Part shown: in pieces, positions 23,807-36,735 of the stretch
Numbering within the stretch: position 1 is the first letter of the stretch
How the letters are laid out: every line of letters starts with the position of its first letter
Notes under the pieces: model-generated
Told to the model about the DNA's origin: nothing
Seen by the model: the letters and a program-made list of their open reading frames with translations, nothing else
Database searches by the model: none
Position numbers and translations under genes: made by a program
Assembly (NCBI GenBank): GCA_016214355.1
Contig: JACROO010000119.1
Location: 1-36,735, forward strand
Direction: 5' to 3'
Source of the DNA: Nitrospirota bacterium
GTDB lineage: Bacteria > Nitrospirota > Thermodesulfovibrionia > UBA6902 > DSMQ01
DNA length: 36,735 bases

Positions 23807-23835
23807 TTGCAGATAAAATGTTATTGGATTAAAAT
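23807..23835 (+). promoter_or_regulatory. sigma70-like promoter candidate for the two-component operon
   Basis: TTGCAG (23807-12), a 17-nt spacer, then TAAAAT (23830-35). Confidence 0.4.
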
Positions 23836-23847
23836 AAGACCTGTATA

Positions 23848-23940
23848 AGGGTCTGAGGAGAATAACTTTCCTCGGAGGTGAAATTCATTGATGGTCGGGC
23901 CGCCATCTTGCAGTTTTGCTGCAGGATGGCGTTTTACTTT
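23848..23940 (+). promoter_or_regulatory. conserved leader element, copy 1 (SD hairpin + invariant 21-mer + terminator)
   Basis: AGGGTC. Hairpin 23853-59/23869-75 overlaps GGAGG (23874-78). 21-mer TTGATGGTCGGGCCGCCATCT is at 23888-23908. A 12-bp stem (23902-13/23919-30) is followed by GTTTTACTTT. The same architecture is found at 29453-29543. Confidence 0.6.
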
Positions 23941-23977
23941 AAGAGTAACCACACAATCACGATGCGTATACTATTAG
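23891..23977 (+). CDS. candidate leader peptide MVGPPSCSFAAGWRFTLRVTTQSRCVYY
   Basis: ATG lies 12 nt after GGAGG. The first six codons are identical in nucleotides to the copy-2 mini-ORF. The ORF runs through the terminator and ends 16 nt inside the response-regulator gene. Confidence 0.35.
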   Translation: MVGPPSCSFAAGWRFTLRVTTQSRCVYY

Positions 23978-24630
23978 TAGAAGACGAAAAAAATATGGCA
24001 AGTTTTATCAAGCGCGGGCTTGAAGAGGAGCGCTATGTAGTCGATGTTGCCTCTAACGGGGAGAAGGCGCTTTTCTTGGCGGAAACAAATCCCTACGATT
24101 TGATAATTCTTGATGTAATGCTTCCGGATACTACCGGTCTTGTTATTTGTAAGGATTTGCGGGCTAAGAAAATAGACACTTTCATTCTCATGCTTACTGC
24201 TCGCGATGACGTTAAAGATAAAGTATTGGGCCTTGAGACTGGAGCGGACGACTATTTGGCTAAACCGTTTGATTTCGATGAGCTTCTAGCGCGGATTGCC
24301 GCGCTTTTACGCAGGAAACGCCTAGATAAAAGCCCTATTCTTAAGGTCGCGGATCTTGAATTAAACCAACTTACCCATAAAATCATACGGGCTAAAAAAG
24401 AGATAGTCTTGACCGGTAAGGAATATAGCTTACTTGAGTATCTCATGCTCCATGCCAATCAAGTAGTAACGAGGACTGAGATATCGGAACACGTTTGGAA
24501 CGAGGATTTTGACAGCTTGACCAATGTCATAGATGTATTTATAAACCGGTTGCGTAACAAGATTGACCAAGGTTTTAAGAAAAAGCTTATTCATTCTCTT
24601 CGCGGTACGGGCTACATACTTAAGGAATAA
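23962..24630 (+). CDS. OmpR/PhoB-family response regulator
   Basis: The receiver domain starts at MRILLVEDEK, with the ...DLIILDVMLPD phospho-acceptor region. C-terminal winged helix: LTGKEYSLLEYLM...VIDVFINRLRNKI...IHSLRGTGY. Confidence 0.9.
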   Translation: MRILLVEDEKNMASFIKRGLEEERYVVDVASNGEKALFLAETNPYDLIILDVMLPDTTGLVICKDLRAKKIDTFILMLTARDDVKDKVLGLETGADDYLAKPFDFDELLARIAALLRRKRLDKSPILKVADLELNQLTHKIIRAKKEIVLTGKEYSLLEYLMLHANQVVTRTEISEHVWNEDFDSLTNVIDVFINRLRNKIDQGFKKKLIHSLRGTGYILKE

Positions 24631-24632
24631 CG

Positions 24633-26087
24633 ATGCAAAAATCTTTTCGCCGAAAAGTTATGACCGGATTTTGGGTAATGGTATTCCTGTGCGCATTTAC
24701 GGTCCTATTTGCTTTTATAACTACGCGTAACATGCAGAGGGTTTTCTTGAGTACCATGAGAGATAATGTTGCGGCCCTTAAGGCAGCAGAGGAGTTGGAA
24801 CTGGCTTTGCTTAGCCAAAAAGGCTTTTTATCAAATTATTTTTTAGACGGCAATCCAACCTGGATAAAAAAACTCGAAGAAAAGAAAACTATCTTCTTGG
24901 ATTGGCTTAACAAGGCGTCAGATGCCGCTTTGACTCCGCCGGAAAAAGACATCATTGAAGACATTAAACGTCTTTACAAAATATATGAGACCGAGCGCTA
25001 TAAGGCTAAGCATCTTTATGATTCGGGGAATGTTCGGGGCGCTAAAAACGTACTTCTTAAAGACATGTGGGAGGCTTTCGAGGCCCTATATCAAAAGTGC
25101 GAGGATTTTATTCGTATTAACGAATCGATTATTGACAAATCAGAGGTTTCTTTACAAAGAAAAATCATAGGTATGATGGTCTTGATCACGGTTCCTGCGT
25201 TGGTTATAATTGCATTAGTCGGCTCCATGTTCTTTTTGTTAACGAGAAGAATTCTCGCTTCCGTTAAGGACATTACAATAACAACTCGTAATATTAATCT
25301 TAAAAGCCTAAGCGGGCGGGTGAGCACCGCAAATTTGGAAACGGAAATGGAGTATCTGGCTAAATCAATCAACATGATGCTTGAACGTCTGGAACGGTCT
25401 TTTGAATATATTAAGGAATTCAGCTCAAGTATCGGCCATGAATTAAAGAGTCCGCTTGCGATTATTAAAGGAGAGTCCGAGGTTGCATTACGCAAAGAAA
25501 GACAAGTTGAGGATTATCGAAAAGCCTTGAGCGTCAATATCGAAGAAGCAAATAGAATGATCCGCATTGTCGAAGATTTGGTTTTTTTGGCAAAACTCGA
25601 TTACAATCCGGATAATATCAAGAAAGAAGTTTTTGATTTTATTCCGTTTTTTGCGGATATACAGAAACGCGCTCAAACGCTTGTTGCGCAAAAACAAATA
25701 GAGCTTACAGCCACGATTCCCGAAGTCGCCGTTACTTTAGAGGGTAACAAATTGCATTTGAGCCGCCTGTTTTTTAATCTTATTCAGAACGCCGTTAAAT
25801 TTACGTCTTCAGGAGGAAGAATCAATCTATCCGTTCATCCGGAAAACGGCGTATTAAAGGTTTCTATATCGGATACGGGCCTAGGAATCAGCGAAGAAGA
25901 TTTACCCAGGATATTTCAGCGGTTTTTCCAAAAAGGAAAATCCGAATCGGAAAGCAGCGACAGTATCGGCCTGGGTCTAAGCATTGCCAAATCAATTGCA
26001 AAGTTTCATAGTGGCGACATTGAGGTAAAAAGCAAGCCCGGAGAAGGCTCAACTTTTTCCGTAATCCTGCCTATTTTTCACCCCTGA
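24633..26087 (+). CDS. membrane sensor histidine kinase (2 TM, HAMP, HisKA, HATPase_c)
   Basis: Starts 2 nt after the regulator stop. H-box is FSSSIGHELKSPLAII, N-box NLIQNAVKFT, G-boxes DTGLGI / GLGLSIAK. Confidence 0.9.
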   Translation: MQKSFRRKVMTGFWVMVFLCAFTVLFAFITTRNMQRVFLSTMRDNVAALKAAEELELALLSQKGFLSNYFLDGNPTWIKKLEEKKTIFLDWLNKASDAALTPPEKDIIEDIKRLYKIYETERYKAKHLYDSGNVRGAKNVLLKDMWEAFEALYQKCEDFIRINESIIDKSEVSLQRKIIGMMVLITVPALVIIALVGSMFFLLTRRILASVKDITITTRNINLKSLSGRVSTANLETEMEYLAKSINMMLERLERSFEYIKEFSSSIGHELKSPLAIIKGESEVALRKERQVEDYRKALSVNIEEANRMIRIVEDLVFLAKLDYNPDNIKKEVFDFIPFFADIQKRAQTLVAQKQIELTATIPEVAVTLEGNKLHLSRLFFNLIQNAVKFTSSGGRINLSVHPENGVLKVSISDTGLGISEEDLPRIFQRFFQKGKSESESSDSIGLGLSIAKSIAKFHSGDIEVKSKPGEGSTFSVILPIFHP

Positions 26088-26254
26088 TTTTTTCTTCATA
26101 TCCCAGCAATTAAAGTGATAAAAGATTACAAAAAATTAATTTAATGTTAATCTTCGGTTCATTGTCGGTCTGCTATCCTAAAGCATTATACAAGCAAGTG
26201 TATCTTTAGGCGAAAAGGAAAGCAAAACTTGGCAGTTTTTAAAGGGAGCTAGGC

Positions 26255-26641
26255 ATGAAAAGAATTCTTATTATCGATGATGAGCGAAGAATTGGCCAAT
26301 CTTATACGGTCTTACTTTCGGAAGAAGGATTTGAAGTTAAGTATGCCTCAAGCGCGCAAGAGGCAACCAATTTTTTGATCCGTGAACACTTCGATTTAGT
26401 GCTGCTGGATATTAACATGCCGGAAGTAGACGGCAAAGGAATGTACGAAGTTATTAGAGAGTATGATCGGAACATGAAAGTCATCGTTTCAAGCGTTTAT
26501 CCTATTGAAGAACAGGTTCAAAGCATCTTAGGGGCTTCTGCGTATCACAATAAGTCGCAAGGAGTAGATATTCTCGTTGCCAAGGTAAAAGAAGTATTAG
26601 ATGGTGGGGATGCCAGTAAAGATTCTCATAGTCCAAGATGA
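26255..26641 (+). CDS. stand-alone CheY-like receiver protein
   Basis: SD AAGGGAG. MKRILIIDDE...DLVLLDINMPEVDG...KVIVSS pattern. No output domain. Confidence 0.85.
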   Translation: MKRILIIDDERRIGQSYTVLLSEEGFEVKYASSAQEATNFLIREHFDLVLLDINMPEVDGKGMYEVIREYDRNMKVIVSSVYPIEEQVQSILGASAYHNKSQGVDILVAKVKEVLDGGDASKDSHSPR

Positions 26642-26865
26642 AGCAGGGATATCTGATGAAAAGCATAATCGGAATGAAACTTATATTTGCAATCTTGATA
26701 GCAATACTATTAGACGGATGCACGTTTATTGTTAAAGACGACCATGCCGCAAAATATTACGGTATAGACGAACAGCGGGGTGGTGAGTATTTGAATCAAA
26801 TCCTTGAGAAGCAGCAGCAAGTATATCAGACCGAAAAGGTTTCTGTTGGTTCCAAAAGGCCATAA
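26638..26865 (+). CDS. small lipoprotein candidate
   Basis: ATGA overlap with the receiver gene. Signal sequence with lipobox LLDGC. Confidence 0.5.
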   Translation: MKQGYLMKSIIGMKLIFAILIAILLDGCTFIVKDDHAAKYYGIDEQRGGEYLNQILEKQQQVYQTEKVSVGSKRP

Positions 26866-26878
26866 ACGGGGTGATTAT

Positions 26879-27826
26879 ATGAAAAAAATAATATTGGCGG
26901 TTGTTCTTGTTTTAACATTCTCCAATTTAAGCTATGCGGATTTTAAGCAGGAAAGAGAAGCAAAAAGAGAAAGCGAATTAAAAGAGCTTCAGAAGCGTTT
27001 TGAATGGTGGCCAACAGATGCAAAGCCGGGGCCGGTTAAGGATCCCGAGCGCGGCGGCTACTGGTGGTGGCCTAATGAGCCGGGTAAGGCGCGCCCCTGG
27101 GGTAATCGAGGATATGTGTATGTTTACAAGATTATTTTTGATTACAAGGAAGAAGAATTACCTCCTCCTAAGCCGCAGGAGCTCCGTCCTTCGTTACTTA
27201 TTAAGAAGATAATTAAGAACGTGAAAGTATATTTCGACTACGATAAAGCGGTCCTGCGAGATGATGCGGTAAGAATTCTTAAGAGCGCTATTGGAACTCT
27301 TAAGCGCAACCCGGAAACAAGCATTCTTGTTACCGGCAATTGCGATCGCCGCGGGTCGGAAGTCTATAATGAAAAATTAGGGAAACGCCGGGGAGAGGCG
27401 GTAAAGCGTTTTATGCTGGAGAATGGTATTGATGAATCCCGAGTAAAGATTATCAGCCGCGGTAAGTTGGATGCTATTGCTCGCGTTACAGATTTGGAGG
27501 GGATGCAAAAGGAAAGAAATGCCCAGTTTATGATCGCCGAAGTTGAGGAAGTTATGCTGCCGTATCCGGGAGTACCGCAGGAAGCTGAAGCAAAACCGGT
27601 AGAAGAAGGCAAGTATATTATTGAGAAGGAAGAGAAAGTCGAGGCAGAAGTCAAGGTAAGCACCAGAGAGTACACGGTTAAAAAAGGCGATACCCTTTCA
27701 AAAATAGCCAAAGAGCAGCTCGGCGCAGCGCATCGTTGGAAATATCTGTACGAATTAAACAAAAATGTTATTAAGGATCCCAATAAACTTAGGCCGGGGA
27801 AGAAAATAGTTATTCCGATTGAGTAG
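26879..27826 (+). CDS. OmpA-family peptidoglycan-associated protein with C-terminal LysM
   Basis: Signal peptide MKKIILAVVLVLTFSNLSYA. OmpA-like block is VYFDYDKAVLRDDA...LVTGNCDRRGSEVYNEKLGKRRGEAVKRFM. LysM is YTVKKGDTLSKIAKEQLG...LRPGKKIVIP. The track's upstream start 26804 is rejected. Confidence 0.85.
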   Translation: MKKIILAVVLVLTFSNLSYADFKQEREAKRESELKELQKRFEWWPTDAKPGPVKDPERGGYWWWPNEPGKARPWGNRGYVYVYKIIFDYKEEELPPPKPQELRPSLLIKKIIKNVKVYFDYDKAVLRDDAVRILKSAIGTLKRNPETSILVTGNCDRRGSEVYNEKLGKRRGEAVKRFMLENGIDESRVKIISRGKLDAIARVTDLEGMQKERNAQFMIAEVEEVMLPYPGVPQEAEAKPVEEGKYIIEKEEKVEAEVKVSTREYTVKKGDTLSKIAKEQLGAAHRWKYLYELNKNVIKDPNKLRPGKKIVIPIE

Positions 27827-27842
27827 CGGAGCCTTTTTAAGC

Positions 27843-28418
27843 ATGCTTAAGACACTGTTTTATATATTACCCCTCTTGCTGGTCGTGGTTATGTTTTTTG
27901 CGCCAGCGCGTAACTATGTAAATGGTCTATTGCATCGGGATAAGAAGGAATTACGCGAGGAAGAGGTTATCGGCAGAGTTTCCGGTTATAATCCGCGAGT
28001 CGGAGAAATACAGAAAGTCCTGAAGGAAGCCGGTTTTGACCCCGGTCCGGCGGATGGAATCATGGGAGCGCAGACAAGGACGGCAATTAAGGGGTTTCAG
28101 AAGGCGAAGGGATTGAAGTCTACCGGCAAGATAGATTCGGTAACTCGGCTTGCCTTAAATAGGACAGAGGAAGTCAAAAAGCCCGAGTTTAAGGAAGAGC
28201 CAGAACCTGATTCATGGGGAAATACTTCCTCCGATAAGTCAAAGCAGATTCAGATGGCTCTTAAGAGCTCCGGATTTTATAAAGGGGAGATAGACGGAAA
28301 AATAGGGCCTCGAACTAAAACCGCGTTAAGAGCTTTTCAAAAGGCAAACAATCTTAATCCAGACGGGGTAATAGGGTCTAAAACGTGGGAAGCACTAAAA
28401 AAATACCTGAAGAACTGA
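27843..28418 (+). CDS. membrane-anchored protein with two PG_binding_1 domains
   Basis: N-terminal TM segment, then IQKVLKEAGFDPGPADGIMGAQTRTAIKGFQKAKGL and IQMALKSSGFYKGEIDGKIGPRTKTALRAFQKANNL. No catalytic domain visible. Confidence 0.8.
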   Translation: MLKTLFYILPLLLVVVMFFAPARNYVNGLLHRDKKELREEEVIGRVSGYNPRVGEIQKVLKEAGFDPGPADGIMGAQTRTAIKGFQKAKGLKSTGKIDSVTRLALNRTEEVKKPEFKEEPEPDSWGNTSSDKSKQIQMALKSSGFYKGEIDGKIGPRTKTALRAFQKANNLNPDGVIGSKTWEALKKYLKN

Positions 28419-28447
28419 ATATCTTTTATTAAACAGGAGGAGAAGCT

Positions 28448-28843
28448 ATGTTTACAAGAATGATTTTGGTTGTTTTTCTTGCTTTTGCTTTAGCGGGGTG
28501 CGCAACGAATTCTAAAAAGCCGGCTACGCAATCACAGCCCGTAATGTCACAAAAAACATATCAGCAGGAATCGTATTTCAAGGGTTATGATGATAATGAT
28601 ACACGGTCGTCAGATAGCTATGAAAAACCGACTAAGAAAAATTATTCTGAACCCGTAATAGAATTAAGTCCAAAACAGATTCAGCGGACGTTGAAAAAAG
28701 CCGGTTTCTACAAGGGCGAGATTGACGGAAAAGTCGGATCTAAGACAAAAGAAGCTATTATGAGGTTTCAAAAAGCACACGGTCTCAAGGCTGACGGTAT
28801 TGTAGGTAAGAGAACAAGCGAAGAACTACGTAAATATCTTTAA
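28448..28843 (+). CDS. lipoprotein with one PG_binding_1 domain
   Basis: SD AGGAGGAG. Lipobox LAGC. IQRTLKKAGFYKGEIDGKVGSKTKEAIMRFQKAHGLKADGIVG. Confidence 0.8.
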   Translation: MFTRMILVVFLAFALAGCATNSKKPATQSQPVMSQKTYQQESYFKGYDDNDTRSSDSYEKPTKKNYSEPVIELSPKQIQRTLKKAGFYKGEIDGKVGSKTKEAIMRFQKAHGLKADGIVGKRTSEELRKYL

Positions 28844-28939
28844 GTCAAAGGCGTTTAAATAGAAGGAGGTGAGAAAATAAGAATACCAAAATTGGTGGTA
28901 GTATTTTATCGTAAATTATAAACTTAACCGGAGGATAAT

Positions 28940-29338
28940 ATGAGGAAGAGAATTTTTTGTTTAGCAATCGTTGCTTTGTTGATGTTAGGATTGACCAGTC
29001 AAGGTTTTTGCATGGCCAATAGGCCGCCTGCTTCAAAGAAATCTACAAGTAAACAGGTAGAACCTATCCAAAAAATTTCGGGAAAGGTTTCCGGTTATAG
29101 CTGGACAAATTCCACAATTACAATAACAACGGTAAGCGGTACTTCCATTACGGTTGAGATTGACAAGGTAACTAAGATTTCTAAATCGGGAAAATGGATA
29201 AAAATGGCCGATATCAAAACGGGTGATGCAGTGAATGCTGACTACGAAACAAAAGGCGGGAAAAGGGTAGCCAGGACAATTGTAGTGCAGGAGAAGGTTT
29301 CTCCTAAGGTCACAATTCCAGAGAAAAAGAAAAGATAA
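28940..29338 (+). CDS. secreted beta-rich protein, unknown function
   Basis: SD CGGAGGA. Has a signal peptide (MRKRIFCLAIVALLMLGLTSQGFC). No domain recognised. Confidence 0.6.
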   Translation: MRKRIFCLAIVALLMLGLTSQGFCMANRPPASKKSTSKQVEPIQKISGKVSGYSWTNSTITITTVSGTSITVEIDKVTKISKSGKWIKMADIKTGDAVNADYETKGGKRVARTIVVQEKVSPKVTIPEKKKR

Positions 29339-29395
29339 TTTTATCTACATTGCTATAGCTTACCGTATAAGGAGTTCTAAATGAATTGCAATTTT

Positions 29396-29424
29396 TTGAC
29401 ATTGCTATATAATGACACTAATGT
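29396..29424 (+). promoter_or_regulatory. sigma70-like promoter candidate for the OmpA/trehalose operon
   Basis: TTGACA (29396-401), a 17-nt spacer, then TAATGT (29419-24). Overlapped by the second copy of the 11-nt repeat ACATTGCTATA. Confidence 0.45.
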
Positions 29425-29452
29425 AAATACCTTTCTCGTAAATCTATATTTT

Positions 29453-29543
29453 AGGGTCCGGGAATACTTAAATATTCCCGGAGGAATTTTTGATGGTCGG
29501 GCCGCCATCTGAGTTAATCTCGGGTGGTGGCTTTTTATTTTTT
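29453..29543 (+). promoter_or_regulatory. conserved leader element, copy 2 (SD hairpin + invariant 21-mer + terminator)
   Basis: AGGGTC. A 9-bp hairpin (29458-66/29473-81) overlaps GGAGG (29480-84). The 21-mer is at 29490-29510. An 11-bp stem (29501-11/29521-31, 3 G.U pairs) is followed by TTTTTATTTTTT. Confidence 0.6.
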
Positions 29544-29564
29544 ACAACCAAGGGAAAAACATGA
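29493..29564 (+). CDS. candidate leader peptide MVGPPSELISGGGFLFFTTKGKT
   Basis: ATG lies 8 nt after GGAGG. The stop TGA 29562-64 overlaps the ATG of the next gene (ATGA). Confidence 0.4.
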   Translation: MVGPPSELISGGGFLFFTTKGKT

Positions 29565-29686
29565 AAACATTTTTTCAGGTGTTCAAAGAAGAGAAAGAAA
29601 TGAGATTTATTTTTGCAATTTTTACTGTCATGATTTTATTGGGCATAGGCTGCGTTATATTCGCCGTCGCTCATCCAGCAAGCTAA
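29561..29686 (+). CDS. 41-aa single-pass membrane protein (below track cutoff)
   Basis: MKTFFQVFKEEKEMRFIFAIFTVMILLGIGCVIFAVAHPAS. Start is coupled to the leader mini-ORF stop. Confidence 0.45.
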   Translation: MKTFFQVFKEEKEMRFIFAIFTVMILLGIGCVIFAVAHPAS

Positions 29687-29699
29687 TGGAGGATTACTC

Positions 29700-30371
29700 A
29701 TGAAGGCCCGGGTAACAATTTCTGCGATTCTAATAGTATCTATGTTATCTGGGTGCGCCTATATCCAGAAAGCCAAGAGAACCGATGAGCTTGAAGCTGA
29801 AAATGCCAGCCTAAGAAATAAGATTGGCCAACTTCAGAAAGAAAAAACAAAGGAAGTCCGGCGGATTTATGAGGAAAAAGATAAAGAGCTCTCCGAGCTT
29901 GAGCGGGCAAAACGCGAACTGGAAGAATCGTTAAAACAGGAAATCGGAGAATATAAGGCAAAGCTACAAATGACCGAGCGGGGCCTGGTGATTACTTTTG
30001 TTTCCGAAATATTCTTTGATTCAGGCAAAGACAAATTGAAATCTGACGGCATGATGACGCTTAATAAAGTCGCCGAAGTTTTGAATAAAGAAGTTCCTAA
30101 TTCAAATATGGCTGTCGAAGGTCATACCGATAACGATCCTATAAAACATTCTGGATGGAAGTCAAATTGGGAGCTCTCTTCTGCCCGGGCACTGGCAGTA
30201 TTGCACTATCTTATTAGCGAAGGCAAAATTAGGCCGCAGCGTCTTTCTGCAAACGGCTATGGAGAATTTCATCCTGTAGCGCCAAATGATACAGTGCAGA
30301 ATAAGCAGAACAATAGAAGGGTGGAAATCGTAATTCTGCCTTCCAAATTAAGCAAAGTGAAACTGCAGTAG
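29700..30371 (+). CDS. OmpA/MotB-domain lipoprotein with N-terminal coiled coil
   Basis: SD GGAGG. Lipobox LSGC. Coiled coil covers about residues 30-90. OmpA-like C-terminal domain: VEGHTDNDPI...NWELSSARALAVLHYL...GYGEFHPVAPNDT..NRRVEIVI. Confidence 0.85.
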   Translation: MKARVTISAILIVSMLSGCAYIQKAKRTDELEAENASLRNKIGQLQKEKTKEVRRIYEEKDKELSELERAKRELEESLKQEIGEYKAKLQMTERGLVITFVSEIFFDSGKDKLKSDGMMTLNKVAEVLNKEVPNSNMAVEGHTDNDPIKHSGWKSNWELSSARALAVLHYLISEGKIRPQRLSANGYGEFHPVAPNDTVQNKQNNRRVEIVILPSKLSKVKLQ

Positions 30372-30388
30372 GAAAGGAGCGTGCCGTT

Positions 30389-30586
30389 ATGTTTGATAAA
30401 ATGAACGAGAGATTAAGAAAATTAACGGTAATGGACATAGGGTTGGTAAAATGGTCGGCTTTTTTTGCAGCTGTTATAATTGTTAAACTTTTCCCGCAGC
30501 TTTTGAAAATTAACTACGGGGTTCTTATATTATTAACGATAGCTTGCGGTGCCAGGCCACTATACAAGTTTTGGATTAAAAAATAA
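30389..30586 (+). CDS. small two-TM membrane protein
   Basis: SD AAAGGAG. 65 aa with two hydrophobic segments. Confidence 0.55.
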   Translation: MFDKMNERLRKLTVMDIGLVKWSAFFAAVIIVKLFPQLLKINYGVLILLTIACGARPLYKFWIKK

Positions 30587-30605
30587 GTTAAAAGCCATTA
30601 ATTAA

Positions 30606-32843
30606 ATGAGAAGAGTATTTTTATTTATCCTACCCATTCTAATTATTGTTTCCGCGGCCTTTACGCTTTTTGGCTTCTTTCAGGTGCGCTTTGAAGAAGA
30701 GAAGCTTATTGATGATTTGAAAAGAAAAGCCAAAAGCGTTGCCGAAAGCATGGAATTGTCGGTACAGCATGTGCTTTCAGCCAATGATTTAAAAAATGCC
30801 AATTATCTTGCCGAGAAATTTGAGACTAGGGAAAGATTGCAGGGTTGTGTTATTTACGATAAAGACGGCAACATAATAGCGCTTACCAAAAGATTCGGTG
30901 ATTGGAAAGAAAAAGACAAGCCGTATATTAAAGATATTATAGCGAATAAGACTCCGCGGGGAGAGTTGGAGAAATTCAAAGATTATCAGGTTTATAGTTA
31001 TATTCTCCCTATAGTTGATGATGCGGGGCAGTTTTTGGGAATGGTTGAGGTTATACATGATACTTCCTATGTCTTCGCGAGATTGACTGAACTTTGGAAG
31101 CGCATTAGCTCAACGTTAATAATCTTAGTAGTAGTAATTTTTATTATCTCCATTTTTCTTCACAGGCAGATTTTTGCTCTGCCAGTACAGCGTTTAACAG
31201 ATTGGTTTAAGCATTTCCAGAAAGGCGAAACTGACGAAGCGCATCCAATAAGGGAAAAAGGAGATCTGGGTAAGCTTGCCAGCGAAGTCGAGCAGGTAGC
31301 ATTATCTTTAAGGGTTGCCCGAAGGACGATTTCAGATGAAGCGCAGGCACGCATGGAAAAAGAAGAAATATGGACAGAGGCAAAATTAAAGGATCTAGTC
31401 CATGCGAAGTTAGGAGAGAATGCCTTATTTATAGTGTCCAACCGTGAGCCTTATATGCATACAATAGATGAGGCAACTGGTTTAGAACAATGCATCAGGC
31501 CGGCAAGCGGCGTTGTTACTGCGATTCACCCGGTTCTATGCGCTTGTGGCGGCACATGGGTTGCTCATGGTGCTGGCAATGCGGATAAGAAATTCGTAAA
31601 TTCAAAGGATAAGCTCGGTGTTCCGCCTAAAGATATACGTTATATTCTTAAAAGAGTCTGGCTGGATAAAGAAGAAGAGGATGGCTACTATTACGGATTT
31701 TCCAACGAGGGCTTATGGCCGTTATGCCACAATACGCATACGAGGCCGGTTTTTCGGGAGTTGGACTGGCAGGCTTACAAAAAGGTGAATCAGAAGTTTG
31801 CGGATTCCGTTTTGGAGGAATTACCCGTCAAACATCCTTTTGTATTTATTCAAGATTATCATTTCACTCTGCTCGGGAAGATGATTAAAGAAAGGCGCCC
31901 CGATGCTACAATTGCGCTTTTTTGGCATATTCCCTGGCCTACACCGGAGGCATTCTCCATCTGCCCTTACCGCAAAGAGATTCTTGAAGGCATGCTTGGG
32001 TGCGATTTGATAGGTTTTCATGTCCAGAATCATTGCAACAATTTTCTTGATACAGCCAACAGACTCCTTGAATCAAGGGTTGATATAGAAAAATTCAGCA
32101 TTGTCCGTTCTGAAAAGGAAACTTTTGTTAGAGCATTTCCGATTAGCGTTAACGGGCATTTTAACCAAGCTGCGAAGGACGCGGACATAAAACGAGAGAT
32201 AGATAAAATTAAAAAAGAGTTTGACTTGGAAGGTAAAATTATAGGTTTGGGGGTTGACAGGATTGACTATACAAAGGGTATCGTTGAGAGAGTGCTTGCT
32301 ATAGACAGGTTTTTAGAGAAATACCCTCAATACAAGAAAAAATTCGTTTTTATTCAGCTTGCCGCTCCAAGCCGTGTGCATATAAAGCGTTATCATGACC
32401 TTATGGCAGAAATTGACGAATTAATCGAGAAGAAAAACTGGAAGTATTCTGATTCTGGCTGGAAGCCGATTGTTTATCTTAAAAGGCATTTTTCTTTGGA
32501 TGAAATCGAGCCTTTCTATAAAATGGCTGATCTTTGTATTGTAAGCTCGCTTCATGACGGCATGAACCTTGTGGCCAAAGAATATGTGGCAGCCAGAAAA
32601 GATTTGTCAGGGAGCCTTATATTAAGCCAATTTACCGGCGCAGCAAGAGAGCTTGTCGATGCTATTCAGGTAAACCCGTATTCAATAGAGGAGTTTGCCG
32701 ATAGCATACAATTAGTTCTTCAGATGCCACAGGATGAGAAAACAAAACGCATGGAAAAAATGCGGAAAGTTATTTCGGAGAATAATGTTTATCGCTGGGC
32801 AGGAAATATCATCACTGAGCTAGCGGCACTAAAGAAAGTATAA
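30606..32843 (+). CDS. otsA: membrane sensor-HAMP domain fused to trehalose-6-phosphate synthase (GT20)
   Basis: TM1 is at residues 4-25. An extracytoplasmic region of about 140 aa has Cache/PDC-like strands (GCVIYDKDGNIIALT; YSYILPIVDDAGQFLGMVEVIHD). TM2 (LIILVVVIFIISIFL) and a HAMP-like linker follow. GT20 motifs: FIVSNREPY, YYYGFSNEGLWPLCH, FIQDYHFTLL, FWHIPWP, DLIGFH, SLHDGMNLVAKEY. Confidence 0.85.
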   Translation: MRRVFLFILPILIIVSAAFTLFGFFQVRFEEEKLIDDLKRKAKSVAESMELSVQHVLSANDLKNANYLAEKFETRERLQGCVIYDKDGNIIALTKRFGDWKEKDKPYIKDIIANKTPRGELEKFKDYQVYSYILPIVDDAGQFLGMVEVIHDTSYVFARLTELWKRISSTLIILVVVIFIISIFLHRQIFALPVQRLTDWFKHFQKGETDEAHPIREKGDLGKLASEVEQVALSLRVARRTISDEAQARMEKEEIWTEAKLKDLVHAKLGENALFIVSNREPYMHTIDEATGLEQCIRPASGVVTAIHPVLCACGGTWVAHGAGNADKKFVNSKDKLGVPPKDIRYILKRVWLDKEEEDGYYYGFSNEGLWPLCHNTHTRPVFRELDWQAYKKVNQKFADSVLEELPVKHPFVFIQDYHFTLLGKMIKERRPDATIALFWHIPWPTPEAFSICPYRKEILEGMLGCDLIGFHVQNHCNNFLDTANRLLESRVDIEKFSIVRSEKETFVRAFPISVNGHFNQAAKDADIKREIDKIKKEFDLEGKIIGLGVDRIDYTKGIVERVLAIDRFLEKYPQYKKKFVFIQLAAPSRVHIKRYHDLMAEIDELIEKKNWKYSDSGWKPIVYLKRHFSLDEIEPFYKMADLCIVSSLHDGMNLVAKEYVAARKDLSGSLILSQFTGAARELVDAIQVNPYSIEEFADSIQLVLQMPQDEKTKRMEKMRKVISENNVYRWAGNIITELAALKKV

Positions 32844-32847
32844 CAGT

Positions 32848-33639
32848 ATGGAATATTTATTTGATCAGTGGGGGCAAGTCAAAAGGAAGCTAAACAATAA
32901 GCACATTGTGTTCTTTTTTGACTACGATGGGACTTTAACTCCGATTGCGGAAACTCCGCAGCAAGCGGTAATTCCTAGACAGGTGAAAGAATTGTTGAGG
33001 AAGTTATCACGAAAACCTAATTGTGCATTAGCCATTATCAGCGGGAGGGCGCTGGAAGATATAAAAGATCTCGTTAGGTTAAAAGGTATTATTTATGCCG
33101 GTAATCATGGGCTGGAAATTGAAGGCCCGAAAATTAAATTTGAAAGCCAGGTTTCACCGAGATTAAAGTCAGTTATACGCAATATTTATGAAGATATGGT
33201 TAACAAGCTTTCAAAAATCAAAGGAGTTTTAATAGAAGATAAAGGATTAGCTATCGGCGTGCACTATCGTTTGGTGGATGCAACAGATATCCAGGAGTTT
33301 TTGAACATCTTTTCCGAGATTACCGAGTCTTTTACGGTACGCGATAAGATTAAAATTAATGAAGGTAAAAAGGTGTATGAAATTAGGCCTCCGGTTGCTT
33401 GGGATAAAGGTAAAACAGTATTATGGCTTTTAGCAAGGCAGCAATTTTTAGTAGGCGAAGATAAAATTTTTCCCATCTACTTTGGGGATGATATAACCGA
33501 CGAAGACGGCTTCAGGGCATTAAAGAATAAAGGGTTAACAATATTTGTAGGCGAGCCAAAAGCCTCAGAAGCGGCTTATTATGTAAGGAATACAGAAGAG
33601 ATTACTCAGTTTATAAAGAAAGTTTTGGAGTTAGAATAG
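32848..33639 (+). CDS. otsB: trehalose-6-phosphate phosphatase (HAD family)
   Basis: Starts 4 nt after otsA. HAD motif I is FFFDYDGTLTP. ISGR, GNHG and the C-terminal GDDITDEDGF motifs are present. Confidence 0.85.
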   Translation: MEYLFDQWGQVKRKLNNKHIVFFFDYDGTLTPIAETPQQAVIPRQVKELLRKLSRKPNCALAIISGRALEDIKDLVRLKGIIYAGNHGLEIEGPKIKFESQVSPRLKSVIRNIYEDMVNKLSKIKGVLIEDKGLAIGVHYRLVDATDIQEFLNIFSEITESFTVRDKIKINEGKKVYEIRPPVAWDKGKTVLWLLARQQFLVGEDKIFPIYFGDDITDEDGFRALKNKGLTIFVGEPKASEAAYYVRNTEEITQFIKKVLELE

Positions 33640-33641
33640 CT

Positions 33642-34316
33642 ATGGCGCTAATATTAAAAGCAAAAGAGCCGTTTAGGTTTTACACACGTCTGCATTTATC
33701 AGAATTAACCGGTTTAAGAGCCACTACCTTAGATCAGCTGGTTAAGCTTATTAAGGATGTACCGGGATCTTGCATTTATCATCATACTCATAGGTTTTTG
33801 CAGCAACATCAGTTTTTTTCGCCCGAACCTCCAAACGACTTTGCCTATTGGGTTAGCGAAATATTAGGAGAGAAAGAGCTTGGCGAGCGGCTTGCAAGTA
33901 TAGATATAATGCAGTTCGCGAAAATTCATGATCTACGAGAGAGAATTATTTCAGTGATTGAAGAGTATTTAAAGGAGGGGCGTTTTGCCCAGCTTAAATT
34001 TGCCCGGGAAGGCGAAGAATTTTATTTTATAAAATCAGTGAGTTTTGTTATCCCGACAAATCACGTTGCCGACAACTTGGCAGATTTCGTTGAGATTATA
34101 AAGAAAATTACCTTTGATTCGATATATTTTCATATCTTTGAAGCGCGTCTGCGGCTTGAAAAGAAAGCAAACGACTTTTCTAACTGGATAGAGAATTCTG
34201 TTGGAAATAAGGAGCTTGCGGATGAGCTTGCGGCTTTAGATCCTTATACACGGACTCTTGATGACTTACGAAGCGCGATTATCAGCATTATCAATAAGAA
34301 ATTATTTGAGCAATGA
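33642..34316 (+). CDS. conserved hypothetical protein linked to trehalose genes (possibly DUF5752-like)
   Basis: 224-aa ORF, 2 nt after otsB and overlapping treT by 4 nt. The family assignment is only a recollection. Confidence 0.6.
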   Translation: MALILKAKEPFRFYTRLHLSELTGLRATTLDQLVKLIKDVPGSCIYHHTHRFLQQHQFFSPEPPNDFAYWVSEILGEKELGERLASIDIMQFAKIHDLRERIISVIEEYLKEGRFAQLKFAREGEEFYFIKSVSFVIPTNHVADNLADFVEIIKKITFDSIYFHIFEARLRLEKKANDFSNWIENSVGNKELADELAALDPYTRTLDDLRSAIISIINKKLFEQ

Positions 34317-35524
34317 TAAAACTTGAAGAATACATACCGATTGTAGGCCAATCCGTAATTGACGATTTAAGATTGATTGCAACCCGCCTTAAAGGCAAAA
34401 CCATACAGCACATTAACTCAACTTCTGTTGGAGGCGGAGTAGCTGAGATTCTTAGCCGTATGGTGCCTTTATTACAGGAATTAGGTGTTGGCGCGCGTTG
34501 GGATTTGATTAAGGGAGGGGAGCAGTTTTTTGAAGTTACTAAAAAATTCCATAATGCGCTGCATGGTTATCCAGGCGAAATAACAAAAAGAGACTTCGAG
34601 ATCTTCCTTGAAACAAGTCAGCAAAATATCAATGAGGTAGATACGTGCGGAAATATTGTGTTCATCCATGATCCCCAGCCGATTGCGCTGGTCAAGAGAA
34701 GACAGGGCAATAAGTGGCTTTGGCGTTGCCATGTTGATGTGTCTGATCCCAATGAAAAGGTTTGGAATTTTCTTATGGAATATATCGTGCGCTATGATGC
34801 AGCGGTATTTTCCGCTCCTAGTTTTTCGCGCAGGCTGCCGATTCGCCAGTTTCTGATTTCGCCATCAATTGATCCTTTAAGCGATAAGAATAAAGAATTG
34901 TCGCAGGAAACCATAGATAGAGTGTTGCTAAAATACCAAATTCCTAAAGATAAGCCTATTGTTACCCAGATATCGCGTTTTGACCGTTTAAAGGATCCTT
35001 TAGGAGTGATTGAAGCATACAGAGAAGTTAAAAAGTATATTAATTGCCGATTAGTTTTAGCAGGCGGCGGCGCTTCTGACGACCCAGAAGGGACAATGGT
35101 ATTTACGCAGGCGATGGAAATGGCAAAAAAAGACAAAGATATCCATGTTTTGCTTCTTCCGCAGAACGATATAGAAATCAATGCCTTGCAGCGGGCATCT
35201 ACGGTAATTATCCAGAAATCAATCCGGGAAGGCTTTGGTCTTACGGTTTCGGAGGCTCTATGGAAAGCAAAGCCGGTTGTAGCTTCTAATGTCGGTGGTA
35301 TTCCTTTACAGGTAAAACATAAATATTCTGGCCTATTATGTCATTCTATTCAGGGAGCTTCTTTCGCAATTAAGCAGCTCTTAAATAGCCCAGCATACGC
35401 GAAGAAATTAGGGGAGAATGGCAAAGAACATATTCGGAATAATTTTCTGATCACTCGGCATTTAAGGGATTATATGCTTTTGTTCCTTTCGCTATATCAT
35501 GGAGAGGATGTCGTTTATTTGTAA
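34313..35524 (+). CDS. treT: trehalose glycosyltransferring synthase, TreT-type (GT4)
   Basis: Blocks matching remembered archaeal TreT: INSTSVGGGVAEIL, FHNALHG, HDPQP, WLWRCHVD, SPSIDPLSDKN, VTQISRFD, DDPEG, NALQRAS, IREGFGLTVSEA, NFLITRH. Confidence 0.8.
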   Translation: MIKLEEYIPIVGQSVIDDLRLIATRLKGKTIQHINSTSVGGGVAEILSRMVPLLQELGVGARWDLIKGGEQFFEVTKKFHNALHGYPGEITKRDFEIFLETSQQNINEVDTCGNIVFIHDPQPIALVKRRQGNKWLWRCHVDVSDPNEKVWNFLMEYIVRYDAAVFSAPSFSRRLPIRQFLISPSIDPLSDKNKELSQETIDRVLLKYQIPKDKPIVTQISRFDRLKDPLGVIEAYREVKKYINCRLVLAGGGASDDPEGTMVFTQAMEMAKKDKDIHVLLLPQNDIEINALQRASTVIIQKSIREGFGLTVSEALWKAKPVVASNVGGIPLQVKHKYSGLLCHSIQGASFAIKQLLNSPAYAKKLGENGKEHIRNNFLITRHLRDYMLLFLSLYHGEDVVYL

Positions 35525-36207: not shown

Positions 36208-36735
36208 ATGATTATTGTTTGGTTAAAATTTATCGTTTGTGCTGCTTTGATACTATTTGCTGGTAAGCGCGTCGCCAAATATGGAGATGCCATAGCAGAG
36301 AAAACGGGTCTGAGCGGTCTTTGGATTGGCGTGATATTGGTATCACTCGCCACAAGCCTTCCCGAATTATTTACAGGAGTGGGCAGCACAGTTTTTGTTA
36401 ATGCTCCTAATTTGACAACTGGTAATCTGTTTGGGGCGAATACCTACAATCTCATAAATATTGCTGTGTTAGATTTTATGCATAAGGGATCACCCTTATT
36501 AAGCTTAGTTTCTGCCGGGCAATTGTTAACCGCAGGATTAAGCCTTATTCCATTGACGATAGCTGCCGTTGGAATATTTCTAAGCCATCAATTTCCACAG
36601 TTAGCTTTTGCAAATATTAGCCTTTTTAGTATTTTAATTCTTGCTTCGTATCTTATTTGCGTAAGAATTATTTTTGGGTTTGAGCAAAAGCAACAGCAAA
36701 TTCTTAAAGAGCTACGCAAAGAAGAAAAAATTTTA
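36208..36735 (+). CDS. CaCA-family (Na+/Ca2+ exchanger-type) cation antiporter, 5' partial
   Basis: SD AAGAGG. The frame is open to the window end (176 codons) and is absent from the ORF track because it has no stop. Alpha-repeat motif is GVILVSLATSLPELFTG. Several TM segments. Confidence 0.75.
   Translation, partial: MIIVWLKFIVCAALILFAGKRVAKYGDAIAEKTGLSGLWIGVILVSLATSLPELFTGVGSTVFVNAPNLTTGNLFGANTYNLINIAVLDFMHKGSPLLSLVSAGQLLTAGLSLIPLTIAAVGIFLSHQFPQLAFANISLFSILILASYLICVRIIFGFEQKQQQILKELRKEEKIL

Follow-up and report, generated by a model that had tools for sequence, protein, structure and literature searches.

Two leader RNAs of a Nitrospirota contig as probable nhaA-I family riboswitches ahead of an envelope operon and a trehalose operon

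We analysed a contig of 36,735 nucleotides (nt) from a Nitrospirota bacterium (JACROO010000119.1, positions 1 to 36,735, below called the window), in which two near-identical leaders with intrinsic terminators head two operons, the first encoding a two-component system and envelope proteins and the second the synthesis of trehalose. This arrangement had been noticed in a preliminary description of the DNA, and it is borne out by the sequence, the folds and the Pfam matches. The preliminary description took the leaders for attenuators governed by a ribosome stalled on a short peptide; we consider it very likely instead that both are riboswitches of the nhaA-I family (Rfam RF03057; Li+-I/Na+-II) with an intrinsic-terminator platform, acting as ON switches. 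Both leaders are members of this family, fold into mutually exclusive alternative structures, have helices with covariation among homologues, and stand in a gene context found behind other members. By analogy with the published family member from Desulfobulbus propionicus, they would be expected to bind a cation and to antiterminate. We see in them a clear fresh example of a riboswitch family that has already been described.

Family membership and folding of the two leaders

An Rfam scan of the whole window returned exactly two matches above threshold, both to RF03057 (the nhaA-I motif), with 48.3 bits (E = 1e-6) for copy 1, ahead of the two-component operon, and 56.8 bits (E = 9e-9) for copy 2, ahead of the trehalose operon (coordinates in Table 1). 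Each match spans model positions 1-55 of 55 and exceeds the gathering score of 37, and the likeness of the two leaders is therefore not a matter of chance. A scan of the rest of the genome gave no further copy of RF03057, which leaves the window pair as the only two. The leaders have in common an identical 21-mer, TTGATGGTCGGGCCGCCATCT, at 23888-23908 and 29490-29510.

RNAs of the nhaA-I family have been validated as Li+-binding riboswitches, termed Li+-I, and rare variants with a terminator stem have been named Na+-II (White et al. 2022, PMC9646797). In the family consensus, GGGU is followed by helix P1, AGG, a linker, and helix P2 with its loop, cGaUGGU-CGGGCC-GCCAuCg. The Na+-II RNA of D. 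propionicus (its 'hypo' RNA) showed Na+-dependent antitermination in purified single-round transcription, with a dissociation constant for Na+ of ~1.4 mM, and the response is abolished by changing GG to AA in the AGG linker or by changes to the CGGGCC loop (PMC9646797). The window leaders share with this RNA the order of GGGU, P1, AGG linker and P2 with a CGGGCC loop, a P1 base of the form GGGUCC...GGAGG, a terminator 5' arm that coincides with the 3' arm of P2 in the manner of an ON switch, and a position not linked to nhaA. They differ from it in the stem of P2 (GAUGG/CCAUC in the window, GUUAG/CUAAC in the Na+-II RNA). Moreover, Na+-II variants have been reported from Deltaproteobacteria only, upstream of hypothetical genes (PMC9646797), whereas the window copies precede two-component/envelope and trehalose operons in a host that is probably not a deltaproteobacterium.

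When the aptamer of each copy was folded alone with RNAfold, it formed P1 (9-10 bp) and P2 (6 bp, loop CGGGCC), while in the presence of the downstream arm a terminator of 14-15 bp displaces P2, with folding energies of -40.8 and -42.9 kcal/mol. Against shuffled sequence, the RNAfold z-scores of the leaders are -4.9 (copy 1) and -5.8 (copy 2). The two terminators are the two top-ranked terminators of the region in a consensus scan, and TTTTTATTTTTT lies directly 3' of the hairpin of terminator 2. Because the terminator uses the loop of P2 together with its 3' arm, the two hairpins cannot coexist, and since a stabilised P2 prevents the terminator, the layout is that of an ON switch.

We propose that the nascent leader would fold P1 and then P2 (GAUGGU-CGGGCC-GCCAUC). 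An alkali cation bound by the aptamer would hold P2 in place and keep its 3' arm from entering the stronger terminator hairpin as 5' arm, so that RNA polymerase would read through into the operon; with the cation absent, the terminator would form and transcription would halt at the U tract. A single intracellular ion signal could in this way turn on both units, the first comprising an OmpR-type two-component system and peptidoglycan-binding envelope proteins, the second an OmpA lipoprotein and two routes of trehalose synthesis.

Close comparison was made through metagenome loci, since RF03057 was found in none of the 100 relatives that were sampled; in a sample of 150 further genomes of the phylum, one had it. 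We gathered 120 metagenome loci (L124-L243) with a search pattern whose sole fixed parts are GGGU, GGAGG and UGGYCGGGCCGCCA and which, by demanding GGAGG, preselects the set for the GGAGG subtype. A proper P1 is present in 102 of the 120, and the alignment with the window copies holds 103 sequences. Both nhaA-I helices are backed by covariation in this alignment: standard pairs fill 95.8% of the P1/P2 cells, compared with 84.2% in shuffles, and 198 cells are changed on both sides, compared with 37 in shuffles. Shifting the partners by one, two or three columns lowers the share of paired cells to 31-59%. The differences in P1 of the window copies are compensatory changes. A terminator overlapping P2 was found in 53 of the 101 metagenome homologues examined.

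Two riboswitch copies occur on a single contig also in L158, L221 and L241. Those of L158 (840-1044, minus strand) are tandem copies ~100 nt apart with a terminator each, and fit the tandem nhaA-I arrangements mentioned in PMC9646797.

Sodium or lithium as the ligand

Given that the leaders are riboswitches, the physiological trigger is, in our estimate, somewhat more probably Na+, or else Na+ and Li+ alike, than any other. In the published supplementary sequences, position 54 is the variable [U/C] of GG[U/C]CGGGCC, giving a loop-closing pair of U-G or C-G. The window copies read GGUCGGGCC, as against AGCCGGGCC in the D. propionicus RNA, and so lack the C54 that is diagnostic of Na+-II; in carrying U54 they resemble the C54U mutant of that RNA, which responds to Li+, Na+ and NH4+. 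Their P1 base, GGGUC(C/U)...GGAGG, is nevertheless that of the Na+-II RNA and not the GGGUGC...GCAGG of the Li+-I consensus. Two further features of Na+-II, a terminator overlapping the 3' arm of P2 and salt-stress neighbours other than nhaA, are present in both copies, and the features of canonical Li+-I (a G-C P1 base and control of nhaA, usually via the ribosome-binding site) are absent from both.

It is unlikely, in our view, that the leaders are canonical Li+-selective (Li+-I) riboswitches and the two operons a response to lithium toxicity rather than to sodium or osmotic stress. The window copies do resemble the Li+-I nhaA leaders of P. monteilii and R. eutropha in their RF03057 membership, in their predicted action as monovalent-cation ON switches and in the invariant UGGUCGGGCCGCCA core, which both copies carry in full, including the U of the diagnostic loop-closing pair; that trehalose synthesis might be under Li+ control has also been raised as one possibility (PMC9646797). 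However, Li+-I members have a G-C P1 base (GGGUGC...GCAGGU), work mostly through ribosome-binding-site control and stand ahead of nhaA, none of which applies to the window copies, whose platform is a terminator and whose P1 base has the C-G/GGAGG form of the Na+-responsive RNA from D. propionicus rather than G-C/GCAGG. NhaA was the first downstream open reading frame (ORF) in 0/86 GGAGG-type metagenome homologues, while nhaA-type antiporters follow at least 486 of 944 RNAs family-wide (PMC9646797). The genes downstream of the subtype are OtsA operons, MscS, DUF1646, CitMHS, OAD_beta, Na_H_Exchanger, Mrp, Na_Ca_ex and Band_7, and the neighbours OAD_beta, DUF1646, MscS and compatible-solute synthesis are those of Na+ and osmotic stress. 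Since the C54U mutant of the Na+-II RNA answers Na+, Li+ and NH4+ (PMC9646797), U54 alone does not confer Li+ selectivity. A Caballeronia locus (L046) served as control and unites all three canonical features of Li+-I, being a Li+-I-type copy with a G-C P1 base that stands ahead of NhaA (E = 6e-141); this control comprises the one locus and the published table, relatives of Caballeronia having given one further match, below threshold.

The leaders may also be compared with the Na+-I riboswitches (DUF1646 motif; White et al. 2022, PMC9337991), which have a similar two-hairpin layout, include terminator-type ON switches and have similar salt-stress neighbours (DUF1646, oad genes and osmolyte synthesis). 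The consensus of the lower P1 and of the P2 loop differs between Na+-I and the window elements, and the latter gave no match to the DUF1646-motif model even at E <= 10.

Several points weigh against reading the leaders as Na+-responsive switches of two whole operons. At the diagnostic position 54, the C of the validated Na+-II RNA is replaced by U in the two copies, and the evidence on the ligand is therefore mixed. The terminator of copy 1 has only four U before ACUUU and may be leaky. The first-downstream-ORF calls in metagenome loci that underlie the count of 0/86 are crude, many of the ORFs having no Pfam match. Finally, a gap of 167 nt lies 3' of the kinase gene of operon 1, and a separate promoter may serve the genes that follow.

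Nearly all of the GGGUC(C/U)...GGAGG metagenome loci (L124-L243) carry U at position 54, and in these loci the P1 base may mark a Na+/osmotic subtype better than C54 does. We tentatively suggest, as a possibility somewhat short of even, that a C-G P1 base (GGGUCC...GGAGG) together with U54, often with a terminator, marks a widespread class that responds to Na+ or broadly to cations. If this is true, the P1 base and the neighbouring genes would define such a class better than C54, and its range would extend well beyond Deltaproteobacteria.

The metagenome-assembled genome RIFOXYB2_FULL_48_7 of the Elusimicrobia carries two terminator-type nhaA-I copies (L095 1730-1830, which is the same as L244, and L245), one of them with C54, and RF03057 matches were found in 4 of 31 genomes around it (the relatives' copies are L246-L248). 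With these terminator-type copies, the published range, Deltaproteobacteria only, proves too narrow. The genome emerged from a loose pattern run over genome contigs; among the matches listed, most were chance ones in high-GC actinobacteria, and the real ones were L046 (Caballeronia) and L095.

The reading frame within the aptamer

ATG 23891 and ATG 29493 each open a mini-ORF beginning MVGPPS, with in-frame CCG CCA codons at 23900-23905 in copy 1 and 29502-29507 in copy 2. The preliminary description had pointed to this conserved peptide start with its Gly-Pro-Pro, which is indeed present in both window copies, and to the placement of CCG CCA inside the 5' arm of the terminator, which the terminator scan confirms for both. 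Because the family consensus of P2 has the sequence given above, however, "ATG GTC GGG CCG CCA TC" is the stem and loop of the aptamer's P2, and the Shine-Dalgarno-like GGAGG is made up of the final two G of P1 and the conserved AGG. Judged from the aligned sequences, the MVGPPS frame is the invariant aptamer core read in frame, and not a functional leader peptide.

A form of dual control, in which formation of the terminator depends both on cation sensing by the aptamer and on translating the short ORF (or on a 30S subunit bound at GGAGG-AUG), we hold to be very improbable. GGAGG and AUG occur together in the two window copies and also in 70 of the 102 subtype homologues, a count for which the search pattern itself had required GGAGG. 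Yet GGAGG is half buried in P1, and mutating its AGG (mutant M2) disables the aptamer in vitro (PMC9646797). The spacing from GGAGG to NUG varies from 5 to 15 nt, and neither the length of the ORF nor the position of its stop codon is constrained. The comparative evidence against a leader peptide, which follows, counts here as well.

Least probable of all, and in our opinion close to dismissal, is the preliminary reading, according to which a ribosome stalled on the Pro-Pro of an MVGPPS leader peptide masks the 5' arm of the terminator and couples read-through to proline, EF-P or osmotic status, as in mgtL/mgtP. Beyond the location of CCG CCA within the terminator arm, this reading can draw on an AUG placed 8-12 nt past GGAGG in the window, on the stop of the copy 2 mini-ORF, which overlaps the next start codon (ATGA), and on the presence of AUG, GUG or UUG at the start site in 100 of the 102 homologues, with CUG in 2/102. 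However, GGAGG, NUG and GGGCCGCCA are all conserved aptamer nucleotides in the Rfam consensus. As three of the four NUG codons can start translation, 98% start codons are expected by chance, and the N itself covaries with its pairing partner (for the column of the ATG's A, AU 63, GU 13, GC 9, CG 2 and UA 2). Across the 102 homologues the length of the ORF lies anywhere between 6 and 734 codons (median 27.5) and is no different from that in the other two frames (medians 22.5 and 17), and the position of the ORF's stop is unrelated to that of the terminator.

The closest loci tell against a peptide as well. In L176, whose response regulator is 91% identical to that of the window, the ORF ends after 8 codons while the aptamer and terminator are kept; in L135 (response regulator 94% identical), the peptide has an unrelated central part, yet hairpin and terminator persist; and the ATGA stop/start overlap of copy 2 is not found in L185. 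The preliminary description had named relatives that keep the RNA structure and lose the ORF as evidence that would speak against it, and such RNAs exist: L247 has an in-frame TGA and then ATA, and hence no start codon, and the Li+-I RNA of P. monteilii and the Caballeronia copy have no start codon at this site. Gly-Pro-Pro is replaced by Gly-Pro-Leu in D. propionicus and in the independent, Rfam-derived matches L123 and L247. Neither the start codon nor Pro-Pro is thus conserved among homologues in the manner of a leader-peptide attenuator, and purified in vitro transcription, where ribosomes are absent, is enough for antitermination by the D. propionicus member (PMC9646797).

The leaders mgtL/mgtP of Salmonella are like those of the window in consisting of a 5' leader with a terminator and with in-frame proline codons beside the structure that decides on read-through. 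They need a conserved translated ORF, whereas in the window's family the ORF, its start and Pro-Pro are not conserved and the helices covary. What survives of the attenuator proposal is a single cis-acting antitermination leader in two copies, in which an occupied 5' arm favours read-through; the ribosome on Pro-Pro as the sensor does not.

The two operons and the reach of the switch

The genes and leader elements of both operons are collected in Table 1. Pfam confirms the operon contents given in the preliminary description, except that the cation antiporter (Na_Ca_ex) starts at 36208, 680 nt past treT and beyond the region then described, and is at most a putative member of the operon 2 transcript.

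Table 1. Leader elements and genes of the two operons in the window
Feature	Position	Strand	Basis and remarks
Promoter-like TTGCAG-17-TAAAAT, leader 1	23807..23835	+	Tentative; read by eye; weak match, below consensus-scan threshold
nhaA-I aptamer copy 1	23849..23908	+	RF03057 match; P1 and P2 from RNAfold of aptamer alone
Copy 1 parts	P1 23853-23861/23867-23875; P2 23890-23895/23902-23907; loop CGGGCC 23896-23901		Order: GGGU; P1; AGG linker; P2 with loop
Intrinsic terminator 1	23901..23935	+	14-bp stem (hairpin 23901-23931), then TTTT; 5' arm is P2 3' arm
OmpR-type response regulator, first gene of operon 1	23962..24630	+	Response_reg, Trans_reg_C (Pfam)
Sensor histidine kinase	24633..26087	+	4HB/HAMP/HisKA/HATPase_c
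Receiver-only response regulator	26255..26641	+	Pfam
69-aa lipoprotein-like small gene, LLDGC lipobox	26656..26865	+	Outside ORF list; no Pfam match; separate 67-aa ORF in L135
OmpA + LysM envelope protein	26879..27826	+	Pfam; start by comparison with L135
Two PG_binding_1 proteins	27819-28418 and 28448-28843	+	Pfam
132-aa hypothetical, last gene of operon 1	28940..29338	+	ORF only; no Pfam match
Promoter-like TTGCAA-16-TATAAT, leader 2	29386..29413	+	Consensus scan, 10/12 matches
nhaA-I aptamer copy 2	29454..29510	+	RF03057 match and fold
Copy 2 parts	P1 29458-29466/29473-29481; P2 29492-29497/29504-29509; loop 29498-29503		
Intrinsic terminator 2	29499..29545	+	15-bp stem (hairpin 29499-29533) plus UUUUUAUUUUUU; overlaps P2 loop and 3' arm
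41-aa membrane ORF	29561-29686	+	49% identical homologue behind riboswitch in L185
OmpA-family lipoprotein	29700-30371	+	Pfam
65-aa membrane ORF	30389-30586	+	Unlisted; Shine-Dalgarno-like GGAAAGGAG; no Pfam match
OtsA, sensor-fused GT20	30606-32843	+	Pfam
OtsB	32848-33639	+	Pfam
DUF5752	33642-34316	+	Pfam
TreT	34313-35524	+	Pfam

In operon 1, the start of the OmpA-LysM gene is most likely ATG 26879, which opens a signal peptide, rather than the TTG 26804 called by the ORF finder. A frameshift in this gene was considered and rejected, since in L135 the 69-aa ORF is conserved as a gene of its own and OmpA-LysM runs from ATG 26879. A sigma-54 promoter ahead of OmpA-LysM was looked for, and operon 1 gave no match. 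The riboswitch precedes operon 1 in L135 and L176 also, and the arrangement of L135 is that of the window from the riboswitch and the two-component genes through OmpA-LysM. Between the end of operon 1 (29338) and riboswitch 2, no terminator was detected on the + strand in 29339-29453, and operon 1 transcripts could therefore run into the second switch.

In operon 2, the 41-aa ORF, the OmpA lipoprotein, the 65-aa ORF and OtsA are separated by gaps of 13-18 nt. As the 65-aa ORF fills the space between the OmpA lipoprotein and otsA, there is no real intergenic gap in this operon, and the tight packing of the coding sequences supports the view that the front genes would be co-transcribed with the trehalose genes. 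For both operons, we infer co-transcription over the full length. A third structured element in 30372-30605 was considered and rejected, since the stretch has a fold z-score of +1.0 and encodes the 65-aa membrane ORF.

The preliminary description had proposed that homologous leaders be sought ahead of trehalose or envelope genes in related genomes, and both were found: at least 17 metagenome loci have the gene string OtsA/OtsB/DUF5752/TreT downstream of a homologous riboswitch, in addition to operon 1 of L135 and L176. Where a single gene separates the sensor-fused otsA from the riboswitch, it is MscS (L141, L162), DUF1646 (L148) or Na_H_Exchanger (L224). The otsA gene is a listed association of nhaA-I RNAs (16/944), with salt-linked control of trehalose discussed (PMC9646797), and this part of our results is thus already published; the riboswitch ahead of an operon of OmpR-type two-component and peptidoglycan-binding genes is a modest new example.

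The common theme of the two operons suggested earlier, salt or osmotic stress, holds, and a shared salt-stress control of both is plausible. The two operons would form a predicted salt regulon, in which trehalose synthesis is joined by OmpA, LysM and peptidoglycan-binding proteins under a two-component system. For both leaders, a documented riboswitch mechanism replaces stalling on Pro-Pro, and the case demonstrates that the invariant core of a riboswitch can mimic a conserved leader peptide, its Shine-Dalgarno sequence included. For the family, the combination of U54 with a terminator and Na+-type neighbours blurs the published boundary between Li+-I and Na+-II. If the suggested cation-responsive class is real, an RNA sensor of the cytoplasmic cation would license a protein sensor that governs peptidoglycan-tethering envelope proteins, in parallel with the synthesis of trehalose.

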